This document shows positions 2,381-4,846 of a DNA stretch of 10,234 nucleotides, piece after piece. A model generated the notes under the pieces. It did no database searches. It saw only the letters and a program-made list of their open reading frames with translations, and was not told the DNA's origin. The stretch lies in IMG/VR virus record IMGVR_UViG_2681813268_000007; one strand, written 5' to 3'. A program made the position numbers and the translations under genes. The stretch is from a virus (Duplodnaviria; Heunggongvirae; Uroviricota; Caudoviricetes). The first letter of the stretch is position 1, and the number at the start of each line of letters is the position of its first letter.

Positions 2381-2386
2381 GTCAGA

Positions 2387-2432
2387 GTCTTTCAGTCTGC
2401 GATGATGGGAAATCCCGGAGTGACTGAAAGAC
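2387..2432. repeat. perfect 11-bp inverted repeat (GTCTTTCAGTC / GACTGAAAGAC) with 24-nt spacer
   Basis: Direct inspection; arms at 2387-2397 and 2422-2432. Confidence 0.8.
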
Positions 2433-2439
2433 GTTTAAG

Positions 2440-2512
2440 TTATGAATGATCGCCTTTTTTTGCAAAATTGCTGTGCAGAAATACTAACCTTCGGGCGTGC
2501 GATCATTCATAA
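2440..2512. repeat. perfect 14-bp inverted repeat (TTATGAATGATCGC / GCGATCATTCATAA) with 45-nt spacer
   Basis: Direct inspection; arms at 2440-2453 and 2499-2512. Confidence 0.8.
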
Positions 2513-2605
2513 GCACTCTGCTTTTATTCCGATTAACTGTGGGTGGTTTGTTGGATAGAGTGTGAGGTGTACTGGCAATAGCGGACACTACCATTTGTTC
2601 TTTTT

Positions 2606-3424
2606 TTAAGCAGCCATCTGATGATATTTTTCCCTGAAGGCTGCCGGGGAGATATTCCCCAGACGAGAGTGACGACGCTGACGATTGTAGAAAATCTCAA
2701 TGTATTCCCGTATTACTGAGATGGCTTCATCCCGGTTATTAAAACGATAGTGGCTCAGGCTCTCATTTTTCAGCGTTCCCCAGAAGCTTTCCATCGGAGC
2801 GTTGTCGTAACAGTTACCTTTACGCGACATTGATGTTTTCAGACCAGACTGCTCCTGTATGACCCGGTAATCGTATGCGCAGTACTGTGAACCTCGATCA
2901 GAGTGGTGGATTAGCCCGGCAGGTGGGCGCTGGCTCCTGAGCGCCATAAACAGGGCTTTACCTGTCAGCTCTTTTGTCATGCGCTCTCCCATGGCGTAGC
3001 CGACAATTTCGCACGTATAAACATCTTTGATGCCAGCGAGGTACAACCATCCCTCCTGTGTGGCAACATACGTCAGGTCCGCCACCCAGACCTGATTTGG
3101 TGCTGTAGGAGCGAACGTCTGGTTCAGCAGATTTGGCGCAACTGGCAGATTGTGGTTCGAGTTCGTAGTCGCTCTGAACTTGCGTTTCTGCTTACAGCGT
3201 AGCCTTAGCTCCTTACGAAGACGTGCCAGTCGGTCACGACCAACGATGATGCCATTCTCTGCCAGCTCCGTCTGGAGCCGCCGGGTTCCATATGTTTCGC
3301 GAGTGCGGATATGTGCCACCTTAATCTCCAGTTTTAGCCGCTCATCACTTTGTTTTCTGTCTGAGGGTTCATGCTGTACCCAGTTGTAATAACCGCTCCT
3401 GGATACACCAAATACCTGACACAT
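2606..3424 (-). CDS. IS3-family transposase OrfB (DDE catalytic domain); in vivo made as OrfAB fusion by -1 frameshift, so the true frame extends upstream to about 3510
   Basis: 272-aa ORF with IS3-type OrfB sequence (MCQVFGVSRSGYYNW..., ending ...YDNAPMESFWGTLKNE...GNISPAAF); the -1 frame upstream of its Met reads SNSVFCTGVAEKYALIEQWRQQFPIEA, continuous with it. Confidence 0.85.
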   Translation of the reverse strand: MCQVFGVSRSGYYNWVQHEPSDRKQSDERLKLEIKVAHIRTRETYGTRRLQTELAENGIIVGRDRLARLRKELRLRCKQKRKFRATTNSNHNLPVAPNLLNQTFAPTAPNQVWVADLTYVATQEGWLYLAGIKDVYTCEIVGYAMGERMTKELTGKALFMALRSQRPPAGLIHHSDRGSQYCAYDYRVIQEQSGLKTSMSRKGNCYDNAPMESFWGTLKNESLSHYRFNNRDEAISVIREYIEIFYNRQRRHSRLGNISPAAFREKYHQMAA

Positions 3425-3459
3425 CGCTTCAATGGGAAATTGTTGTCGCCATTGTTCGA

Positions 3460-3762
3460 TTAACGCGTATTTTTCAGCGACTCCTGTGCAAAATACGCTG
3501 TTGCTTTTTTTAATATATCTCGCTCAAGGCGAGCTTCATTTAACGCCTTACGCAGTTGCAGAATTTCAGATTCCAGTTCAGCCACCGTGCGGGAACCAGG
3601 AGTACCGAGCCCTTTTCTGGCGGCGGTAACCCATTGTCCTAAAGTGCCTTCAGGAAGAGATAATCGGGAAGCGCCTTCACTGATCGAAAGTTGATTTTCA
3701 AGAACCGTTCTGACAGCTTCGGCTTTGAACTCTTTAGAGTAACGTTGGGTTTTTCTGCTCAT
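3460..3762 (-). CDS. IS3-family transposase OrfA (helix-turn-helix / leucine-zipper subunit), 100 aa
   Basis: MSRKTQRYSKEFKAEAVRTVLENQ... is typical IS3/IS600 OrfA; ATG at 3762 with GGAG-type RBS on the minus strand. Confidence 0.85.
   Translation of the reverse strand: MSRKTQRYSKEFKAEAVRTVLENQLSISEGASRLSLPEGTLGQWVTAARKGLGTPGSRTVAELESEILQLRKALNEARLERDILKKATAYFAQESLKNTR
3505..3511 (-). other. programmed -1 ribosomal frameshift slippery site (A7 run followed by G on the minus strand) joining OrfA to OrfB
   Basis: Plus-strand T7 at 3505-3511; OrfA zero-frame reads TTA AAA AAA GCA; OrfB-like sequence continues in the -1 frame. Confidence 0.7.
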
Positions 3763-3826
3763 TATTAGCTCCTTCTGATGCCATTCTATTTCAGGAAGGA
3801 GTGTCCGTTAAACTCAGGCTACCTCA

Positions 3827-3837
3827 NNNNNNNNNNN
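3827..3837. other. assembly gap (11 N) abutting the last base of the IS600-like element
   Basis: Run of n characters in the sequence. Confidence 0.95.
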
Positions 3838-3921
3838 CTGAAAAACGGCACAGGACGTTAAACGTGCTGGTGGTCAGATGAGTTTGCAGATGTGATGACA
3901 TATGGTTATTATTCTGCCTCC

Positions 3922-3998
3922 GGCCCTTTAGCTCAGTTGGTCAGAGCGAGCGACTCATAATCGCCAGGTCGCTGGTTCAAGTCCAGCAAGGGCCACCA
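3922..3998 (+). tRNA. tRNA-Ile2 (CAU), second copy
   Basis: Identical to 2070-2146. Confidence 0.85.
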
Positions 3999-3999
3999 A

Positions 4000-4076
4000 C
4001 CACCACTAGCTCATCCGGATAGAGCATCAACCTTCTAAGTTGACGGTGCGAGGTTCGAGTCCTCGGTGGTGGGCCA
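4000..4076 (+). tRNA. tRNA-Arg (UCU), second copy
   Basis: Identical to 2148-2224. Confidence 0.85.
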
Positions 4077-4078
4077 GC

Positions 4079-4154
4079 GCCGACTTAGCTCAGCAGGCAG
4101 AGCAACTGACTTGTAATCAGTAGGTCACCAGTTCGATTCCGGTAGTCGGCACCA
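4079..4154 (+). tRNA. tRNA-Thr (UGU), second copy
   Basis: Identical to 2227-2302. Confidence 0.8.
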
Positions 4155-4157
4155 TAT

Positions 4158-4232
4158 GCGGGCATCGTATAATGGCTATTACCTCAGCCTTCCAAGCTGA
4201 TGATGCGGGTTCGATTCCCGCTGCCCGCTCCA
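4158..4232 (+). tRNA. tRNA-Gly (UCC), second copy
   Basis: Identical to 2306-2380. Confidence 0.85.
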
Positions 4233-4846
4233 GCGAGATTTGAGACGAAGGTTGTTATTTGCACTGACACAATATTGTGTGGGAATGTCTGACTCCTTAC
4301 CATCTCCTGTTCTGTGATGTTGTTTTGTTGCAGTTCCAGTGCTCTTTTTTCAGCACCAGAATGGTGCATTGTCGGTCAGGTTACGTAGTGAACCTCTGGC
4401 AGGGGACTGATGATTCATCATTCTGGTGTTGTAAATATCTCTTCGGACAACTTACAAAATATTCTAAGCAAACCCCGGGAACACACTCTTAACTGCCTTG
4501 GCTGGCGGTTTTTTGTACAGCGCTCGGTATGTGTGAGCTGGAAATCAGATTTTGCATGGACTGGAATCATGCTGTTATTTAGGGGCGAAGAACTGGCTTT
4601 TTCTTCCGCCTTCTCACCAGTAACGATTAGAAAAATAATGAAATGCCCCCCTCCGGGGAGGAGGACCGTAGAAAAAAGGACCCGCCAGCAAAAACATTGG
4701 GGATGAACAGCTTTCGCTACTCAGATTGCTGGCGGGTAAAGTTCCTCATGAATTAAGAATGCTACGCGATCTTTTTTAATGGAAATGAAAATTATTGTCA
4801 ATTAGTCGTGCGTGTTTTTTCATACAATATTGGTAAAGGTGATTCA

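Follow-up and report, generated by a model that had tools for sequence, protein, structure and literature searches.

A tRNA array present twice in a draft contig probably represents one lambdoid-prophage module in two prophage contexts

Results

A tRNA array in two contexts

We analysed a 10,234-nucleotide stretch of viral DNA (the window; IMG/VR record IMGVR_UViG_2681813268_000007), which is the entire draft contig CXEW01000162.1 and contains the same block of tRNA genes twice. One conserved lambdoid-prophage tRNA module in two prophage contexts, that is, mosaicism together with the joining of the two contexts, very probably explains the whole arrangement. This is known phage mosaicism and involves no new recombination system. 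The tandem placement of the two contexts is most likely an artefact, a scaffolding join; otherwise it would be an IS600-mediated rearrangement. The relevant features are:

1326–1880, plus strand: gene for a Q-like late antiterminator (DUF1133; PF06576 at E=2e-107 and, weakly, PF06530 Phage_antitermQ); it is the final gene of leftA, the left flank
1960–1985, plus strand: terminator-like hairpin (CCCGC/GCGGG) with a run of seven T, then TATAC, read from the sequence; directly upstream of copy 1
1986–2381, plus strand: tRNA block copy 1, an 84-nt leader, four tRNAs, then G
2070–2146, plus strand: copy 1 tRNA-Met(CAT), annotated as tRNA-Ile in RefSeq relatives (Ile2 in the array)
2148–2224, plus strand: copy 1 tRNA-Arg(TCT)
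2227–2302, plus strand: copy 1 tRNA-Thr(TGT)
2306–2380, plus strand: copy 1 tRNA-Gly(TCC)
2382–2562, plus strand: X flank, 181 nt from the start of the X-type tRNA-Gly-to-holin spacer (292 nt in full), interrupted by IS600
2563–3826, minus strand: complete IS600 (IS3 family, 1264 bp), with orfA at 3460–3762 and orfB at 2606–3424 (Pfam HTH_Tnp_1 and rve)
3827–3837, no strand: 11 consecutive N, marking an unsequenced scaffold gap; the contig has no other N run, and copy 2 follows directly
3838–4233, plus strand: tRNA block copy 2, identical to copy 1, with tRNAs at 3922–4232; the left limit of homology is masked by the N run
4234–4912, plus strand: Y flank, all 679 nt of the Y-type spacer that separates tRNA-Gly from the holin gene; no gene or RNA is recognisable in it
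4913–6086, plus strand: lysis cassette (PF04971, PF00959 and PF03245 on called genes)
4913–5128, plus strand: class II holin gene of the cassette
5128–5625, plus strand: lysozyme gene of the cassette
5622–6086, plus strand: Rz-like gene of the cassette

The array is internal to the prophage, with the Q-like antiterminator gene on one side and the lysis genes on the other. ARAGORN and Rfam identify valid tRNAs at 2070–2380 and 3922–4232, on the same strand as the Q-type gene and the lysis cassette, and an Rfam search of the whole window returned eight tRNAs and nothing else. The DUF1133 antiterminator gene also lies upstream of the array in related loci (L002 and L130–L139), and the hairpin and T-run motif also precedes the block in other left-flank classes. 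The lysis and terminase region to the right of Y looks intact.

Homology ends one base after tRNA-Gly

A repeat search of the window showed that 1986–2381 and 3838–4233 are an exact repeat (396/396 identical, offset 1852). The last base common to both copies is the G after the tRNA-Gly CCA, at 2381 and 4233, and over the 200 nt past the repeat end the flanks match at 59 positions, the random level. The first-pass annotation, which had both copies running identically through the CCA plus one base and diverging at 2382 and 4234, was thus correct on this point. No further repeats of 30 nt or longer bounding X or Y were found in the window.

The last tRNA of the array is identical to a host gene. 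tRNA-Gly matches the host chromosomal glyT at 75/75 positions, with identity starting and stopping exactly at the mature tRNA ends, and tRNA-Thr matches thrU at 74/76. The base after host glyT is A, whereas G follows the phage tRNA-Gly. The array tRNAs are spaced by 1–3 nt, and the copies of glyT and thrU lack host flanking sequence.

What follows tRNA-Gly in relatives was tabulated, as the first-pass annotation had suggested. The 126 related loci include 15 unrelated downstream classes, all diverging 0–1 nt after the CCA, and the +1 G is retained in 11 of the 15; randomly scattered breakpoints were not seen among these loci. The same array is present in Escherichia phages vB_EcoS-689R5, PhiR47_1, phi467 and SerU-LTIIb, with matches that stop at the same base. 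On the left side, the limits of homology in the survey recur at tRNA starts (2070, 2227 and 2304), and boundaries are equally sharp at tRNA 5' and 3' ends. Array composition varies tRNA by tRNA among loci, and most arrays have multi-tRNA stretches and the leader in common. Position-2 tRNA variants (Arg, Lys and Phe) were considered as anticodon-only changes; this was rejected, as they differ at many positions. All four combinations of left and right flank occur (counts of 10, 9, 6 and 2, draft contigs included).

X and Y are alternative spacers

X and Y are standard, alternative spacers between tRNA-Gly and the holin gene of different lambdoid prophages. They begin at the same base after tRNA-Gly, and in X-type and Y-type loci homology returns at the holin start codon ATG. 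X stands directly after tRNA-Gly+G in 517 of 5426 complete E. coli genomes (e.g. L003 and L004) and Y in 9 of the 5426 (e.g. L002 and L005). In the finished genome FDAARGOS_944, one X-type and one Y-type prophage lie at a distance of 3.4 Mb from each other, and their blocks are identical over 368 nt up to CCA+G. Y has no Rfam, Pfam or PHROG match; its three ORFs were searched with Pfam and PHROGs, and since none matched, Y was treated as non-coding. Some other downstream classes hold real cargo: LT-II toxin A and B genes follow the same tRNA-Gly. The right flanks had been proposed to be alternative cargo junctions downstream of one array. They are indeed alternative modules, with the same start base in different prophages; they do not come from one phage as two junctions of a single array. 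Two prophage contexts are joined here via IS600 and the N gap.

The module comprises the leader and four tightly packed tRNA genes; the Q-like antiterminator and its terminator precede it, and the lysis cassette follows. The end of homology at CCA+1 would reflect the tRNA genes being the conserved islands, and the boundary would be exact to the base because the last member of the array is identical to a host gene. The boundaries in all 15 classes are sharper than random illegitimate joining followed by selection predicts, so an additional cause is possible. The segment from tRNA-Gly to the holin ATG probably acts as a freely replaceable spacer or cargo slot, with X (292 nt) and Y (679 nt) among at least 15 alternatives. 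The identical block could offer a stretch for homologous recombination to co-resident or co-infecting lambdoid phages, and left and right arms would reassort as a result.

A breakpoint at the 3' end of a tRNA gene had been read in the first-pass annotation as a signature of modular exchange or site-specific recombination. Modular exchange agrees with breaks at the CCA and with the reassortment of the flanks. Site-specific recombination, in which an integrase acting on an att site at the 3' end of tRNA-Gly would swap or insert the downstream segment and X and Y would be integrated cargo, is very unlikely and finds no support in the window. It would account for the coincidence of the breakpoint with the tRNA 3' end in each of the 15 classes, and one locus of a flank class different from X and Y (L096) has a tyrosine integrase gene (PF00589) starting 115 nt after the prophage tRNA-Gly CCA, so that a prophage copy can be an integration target. 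However, there is no integrase in the window or adjoining X or Y in L002–L005 and L130–L139; the Phage_integrase family is absent among the called genes of the contig, where only the IS600 rve transposase appears. Neither X nor Y is bounded by a partial tRNA 3' repeat; both are short non-coding spacers reaching up to the holin start codon. The repeat itself is an 84-nt leader and four whole tRNAs rather than an att-type 3' tRNA fragment, and equally sharp boundaries at tRNA 5' ends are what conserved islands predict.

The same boundaries could be read as the edges of precise cassettes if a dedicated mechanism, perhaps one using mature-tRNA intermediates, acquires or exchanges the tRNA genes of the array; this would account for glyT and thrU copies spaced 1–3 nt apart and devoid of host flanks. 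The exact bounding of glyT identity by the mature tRNA ends fits such cassettes, as do arrays that differ tRNA by tRNA with homology limits at tRNA starts and ends, and a +1 G retained in 11 of 15 classes though A follows host glyT. Purifying selection on the tRNAs with recombination within them gives the same pattern, however; no reverse transcriptase or dedicated enzyme lies nearby in the window, and the multi-tRNA stretches and leader common to most arrays also speak against single-gene cassettes, which we consider highly improbable. A broader version, in which base-precise tRNA cassettes with CCA+G as the preferred joint are moved by a dedicated mechanism and the prophage tRNA-Gly serves as a secondary att site for glyT-targeting islands (compare L096), has a small chance of being right.

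The joint between the two copies

The interval between the copies is mostly filled by IS600, which the first-pass annotation missed, as it did the N run. RefSeq matches to the element exceed 99% identity and are annotated 'IS3-like element IS600 family transposase', and full-length 1264-nt IS600 matches are present in L009 and L010. GTG at 2560–2562 is the left copy of a 3-bp target duplication, the right side being masked by Ns in the window; L009 has GTG on both sides of IS600, and a comparison of L003 and L009 gives the uninterrupted X and the GTG duplication. In L009 and L135, a simple IS600 insertion with GTG duplication is followed by the remainder of X and the holin gene. Two complete 4.8-Mb chromosomes (L131 and L138) match 1–3826 at 100% and then continue with an IS600 fragment and tail genes. 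A second tRNA block is absent in all four of these loci, and two further loci (L137 and L139) correspond to the window minus 2382–4233.

The joint itself was not recovered elsewhere. No complete E. coli genome has an IS600 end 0–30 nt from the start of the block, a BLAST query across the gap found no complete E. coli genome spanning both sides, and the IS600-end-to-block joint, searched with an 11-nt or a 0–30-nt wildcard, had no match in IMG/VR or metagenomes. Searches for both junctions in species-representative genomes likewise gave no match. Among the 126 surveyed loci, tRNA-Gly was never present twice. A contiguous, reproducible tandem duplication of the block was thus not seen, with the N run at the joint and no relative having two blocks. 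A second draft scaffold, belonging to a different genome (L006), likewise has Y placed after an IS600-bearing contig; its join is a single N, the block is skipped, and the same scaffold has duplicated pieces of Y.

Copy 1 with the IS600-interrupted X represents a degraded prophage known from complete genomes, and copy 2 with Y, the lysis genes and terminase a second prophage; their adjacency runs only via the end of a multicopy IS600 and the 11-N gap. SSPACE and GapFiller joins give N gaps and can be false (PMC5320598), and the assembly pipeline of GCA_001260755.1 was presumably of this kind. The second contig of the join begins exactly at 3838 (equivalent to 1986), and the N run may hide TTTTTTTATAC, which precedes copy 1. 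A natural repeat-node boundary at this start was considered and was not demonstrated; no known left flank, Y-type flanks included, leaves leftA exactly at 1985/1986, which is a point against the scaffolding reading.

It is unlikely, though a serious alternative, that the arrangement is real. Homologous recombination between two IS600 copies, one in the X spacer of the first prophage and one just upstream of the block of the second, would have joined the X::IS600 remnant to the second prophage upstream of its block; an IS600 insertion beside the block could lead to the same arrangement. In that case the 11 Ns would stand for a short unique sequence, flanked by two repeats, which a short-read assembler had been unable to place; small unique segments between repeats are probably what short-read graphs lose. 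IS600 runs intact to its final base with a short gap after it, the relatives are IS-rich with prophages visibly rearranged at IS600, and the second scaffold that ties an IS600 contig to Y could reflect true linkage. Yet that scaffold, with its single-N join lacking the block and its duplicated Y pieces, resembles scaffolding noise. Complete genomes 100% identical over 1–3826 have other sequence after IS600, an IS600 end close to the block start is absent from every collection searched, and IS600 at this position would interrupt the late operon, whose lysis and terminase region otherwise looks intact. A scaffolding join of two prophage contexts therefore remains our preferred reading of the tandem placement.

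Discussion

The analysis carries a caution: an apparent duplicated tRNA array with alternative junctions in one element can be two prophage contexts that a draft assembly has joined over a scaffold gap at the end of an IS600. It also illustrates a known principle, in which phage tRNA genes are islands of homology identical to host genes around which early and late arms reshuffle, and a new mechanism is not required. The modular theory of Susskind and Botstein, Juhala et al. in 2000 and Hendrix reportedly describe lambdoid genomes as mosaics with module boundaries at gene borders. Here too, 100% identity gives way to unrelated sequence at a tRNA end, with a second boundary at the holin ATG and flanks that reassort four ways; the difference is that the conserved 'linker' is a tRNA array with a last member identical to a host gene.

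Integration at tRNA 3' ends (attB in tRNA genes) shares with this locus the discontinuity exactly at the tRNA 3' end, and the L096 integrase follows tRNA-Gly. It differs in that the window lacks both an integrase and a partial tRNA repeat; the tRNA lies inside the prophage, and what is repeated is the whole array together with its leader. IS600 insertion and IS-driven prophage decay and rearrangement in Shigella and EIEC resemble the first context: a 1264-bp IS600 with a 3-bp GTG duplication in relatives, in an insertion common to several genomes and followed by further IS fragments and deletions. In the window, however, the N run masks the right-hand IS junction.

In Stx phage 933W, the tRNA cluster ileZ-argN-argO lies after Q and before the genes for toxin and lysis. 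The lambdoid late tRNA clusters (933W, vB_EcoS-689R5, PhiR47_1, phi467 and SerU-LTIIb) have the same antiterminator-to-lysis position as the present array, rare A-ending codons, and a variable slot downstream that can hold toxin genes, as it does here for LT-II in relatives. In the slot after the array, spacers, variants of the lysis cassette and toxin cargo are exchanged, the toxin being LT-II here and stx elsewhere. LT-II is prophage-encoded (PMC5917428); the tRNAs of the array are not mentioned in PMC8136144. Compared with Ile-Arg-Arg clusters, the array here is Ile2-Arg-Thr-Gly, and the window has no toxin gene, X and Y being non-coding spacers. The four tRNAs serve the A-ending codons AUA, AGA, ACA and GGA.

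Homology between the two tRNA blocks ends one base past tRNA-Gly

Base-by-base comparison (offset 1852) showed that positions 1986-2381 and 3838-4233 form an exact repeat (396/396). Its last base is the G right after the tRNA-Gly CCA, and over the next 200 nt the copies agree at 59/200 positions, as in random sequence. The end of homology is therefore located and described correctly in the first-pass annotation. The features considered here are:

2070-2380, tRNA genes Met(CAT), Arg(TCT), Thr(TGT) and Gly(TCC), set 1 (ARAGORN and Rfam)
2563-3826, minus strand, complete IS600 (1264 bp, orfA and orfB), matching annotated IS600 at >99% identity
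3827-3837, run of 11 N directly 5' of copy 2, the sole N run in the window
3922-4232, tRNA genes Met(CAT), Arg(TCT), Thr(TGT) and Gly(TCC), set 2 (ARAGORN and Rfam)
6129-6479, HNH endonuclease gene, followed directly by the small and large terminase genes (Terminase_4, TerL)

The two sets of four tRNA genes are identical to each other, and all eight tRNAs were confirmed with Rfam. In relatives, RefSeq labels the same Met(CAT) gene tRNA-Ile, taken here as the lysidine-modified Ile2. The pairing of HNH and terminase genes is usual in cos-type phages.

Searching IMG/VR with the last 31 nt of tRNA-Gly gave at least 120 loci and, with loci collected earlier, 126 oriented copies. The downstream 150 nt fall into at least 15 unrelated classes: X, the right flank of copy 1 (85 members), Y, the right flank of copy 2 (18 members), and 13 others. 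Tabulating what follows tRNA-Gly, the check proposed with the original observation, placed every break in these 15 classes 0-1 nt after the CCA. The array is also annotated in the deposited phages vB_EcoS-689R5, vB_EcoM-606R7, PhiR47_1 and phi467, and their matches stop at the same base. In BLAST comparisons with the window, all listed classes except X share a stretch of homology containing tRNA-Gly that stops at 2380-2382. On the left, this homology repeatedly begins at 2070 (tRNA-Ile2 start), 2227 (tRNA-Thr start) and about 2304 (tRNA-Gly start), and also at 2053 and 1970. The tRNA genes therefore have sharp boundaries on the 5' side as well as the 3' side, and the 3' end is not peculiar in this respect.

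The phage tRNA-Gly (2306-2380) is identical (75/75) to a tRNA-Gly of 5421/5426 E. coli genomes, glyT of the thrU-tyrU-glyT-thrT-tuf operon, and the phage tRNA-Thr (2227-2302) matches host thrU at 74/76 positions. Identity with the chromosome covers precisely the mature tRNAs and extends into no host flank, and tyrU, which lies between thrU and glyT on the chromosome, is missing from the array. The base after the CCA is G in the window (2381 and 4233) and in 11 of the 15 downstream classes (binomial P about 1e-4 at 0.25), whereas A follows chromosomal glyT; phage contexts thus seem to share a unit made of tRNA-Gly and this G.

Array position 2 (2148-2224 and 4000-4076) is a variable slot, with Lys(TTT) in 52, Arg(TCT) in 31 and Phe(AAA) in 3 of the 126 loci. 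These variants differ at many positions besides the anticodon, and several have abnormal anticodon loops.

Flanking sequences are exchanged across the block

X (2382-2562) directly follows tRNA-Gly plus G in 517 of 5426 complete E. coli genomes, and Y (from 4234) does so in nine (for example, L002 and L005). In two X-type loci (L003 and L004), X begins at 3501, the last base of the tRNA is 3499, and the start of a class II holin gene lies 292 nt past the tRNA; Y extends 679 nt to a holin gene. Since both flanks follow tRNA-Gly, and homology between X-type and Y-type loci returns at the holin start codon, X and Y are two alternatives for the intergenic stretch that links these conserved elements. 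No recognisable gene or RNA was found in either.

Among 30 loci with a block at least 385/396 identical to that of the window, each of the two main left-flank classes (DUF1133-type and Q-type) occurs both with X and with Y (10, 9, 6 and 2 loci for the four combinations), which shows exchange of flanks across the block. Homologous recombination inside the block would account for this exchange. On the simplest reading the tRNA genes would be conserved, hence islands of homology, in surroundings that are all replaceable. Lambdoid mosaicism around the tRNA array is already known, and the phenomenon in the window is the same. The least ordinary remainder is the base-exact tRNA boundaries, including the conserved +1 G, for which we give a cassette-type mechanism a small chance.

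The break had been read as the signature of modular exchange or site-specific recombination at a tRNA end; the flank combinations bear out the former, and the latter found no support. The window contains no integrase gene, and the array lies inside the prophage. The repeat comprises the whole leader and four tRNAs; neither X nor Y was found to be bounded by a partial tRNA repeat. Site-specific recombination was accordingly rejected for X and Y on its defining features, an integrase and a bounding partial tRNA repeat. The single exception among relatives is L096 (IMG/VR; 2.5 kb covered, attR side outside), in which a 534-aa tyrosine integrase (PF00589; oriented coordinates 3780-5500) begins 115 nt past the CCA of a prophage tRNA-Gly identical to host glyT. 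L096 probably carries a glyT-targeting integrative island inserted into the prophage tRNA copy, a phenomenon separate from the X and Y junctions.

Origin of the apparent tandem arrangement

IS600 fills the greater part of the interval between the copies; neither it nor the N run appeared in the first-pass annotation. Because the window corresponds to all 10,234 bp of contig CXEW01000162.1 from a draft assembly (GCA_001260755.1), the N run is a scaffold gap of a draft built from short reads. Judging by the style of the accession, the pipeline was probably of the Velvet, SSPACE and GapFiller type; N gaps arise from such scaffolding joins, which can be false according to the pipeline's authors (PMC5320598). 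The TerL protein sequence of the window has two records in all, the other being only in the Logan assembly of run ERR028703.

In the window, IS600 interrupts X after 181 nt. Comparison of uninterrupted L003 with L009, which has the same insertion, identifies a simple insertion that duplicated 3 bp of target (GTG). The X-IS600 junction is common to five IMG/VR contigs. L009, which has no Ns, is 99.95% identical to window positions 1-3826 and continues after IS600 with GTG, the remaining X and the holin gene; L135 is similar. Two loci from complete 4.8-Mb chromosomes (L131 and L138) are 100% identical over 1-3826, followed by an IS600 fragment and then tail genes. No second block was found in any of these four loci. 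L137 and L139 comprise a left flank of the copy 1 type, the block, Y and lysis genes (L139 also the HNH and terminase genes), which is the content of the window minus 2382-4233. In the finished genome FDAARGOS_944, one prophage of the X type (at 0.90 Mb) and one of the Y type (at 4.30 Mb) have blocks identical over 368 nt up to CCA plus G and then divergent: the observation in the window again, at two separate loci.

We conclude that copy 1 with its interrupted X comes from one prophage and copy 2, together with Y, lysis genes and terminase, from another. The apparent tandem duplication hinges on an assembly gap next to an IS600 end, and the copies were most likely made adjacent by a scaffolding join. 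No IS600 end was found 0-30 nt from a block start in complete E. coli genomes, IMG/VR, metagenomes or species representatives, and none of the 126 surveyed loci contains two tRNA-Gly copies. An IS600-mediated rearrangement, which would make the adjacency real, is the less likely alternative. Two observations speak against a purely artefactual join: the second contig starts at the exact equivalent of base 1986, where no known Y-type left flank diverges from the left flank of copy 1, and the draft scaffold L006 likewise has Y after the IS600-bearing contig. The link in L006, however, consists of one N, bypasses the block and has duplicated pieces of Y. L006 (IMG/VR UViG 2671180430_000009) has single-N joins at 3687 and 4113 and two overlapping versions of the Y region, and this stitching shows the unreliability of scaffolds in these prophage repeats.

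Two other complete genomes (L133 and L136) have a different IS3-family element within the block, inside tRNA-Ile2 (window-equivalent 2140; locus coordinates about 10815).

Content of the slot downstream of tRNA-Gly

Representatives of the other classes have differing lysis cassettes (Phage_holin_8, GH108 endolysin, Phage_lysozyme), some with TerB-like ORFs. The description of the two flanks as alternative cargo junctions is thus fair for this type of locus, with its varied lysis and toxin genes, but not for X and Y themselves, which are without cargo. In Stx phages, stx occupies the same position and is prophage-borne. Two downstream classes include genes for LT-II-type enterotoxin A and B subunits; in L101 and L017 (IMG/VR), the A (PF01375) and B (PF06453) genes lie 0.5-2.3 kb past the same tRNA-Gly, in agreement with the prophage location of LT-II (PMC5917428). 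The deposited phage SerU-LTIIb contains a sequence related to the beginning of Y at 81% identity.
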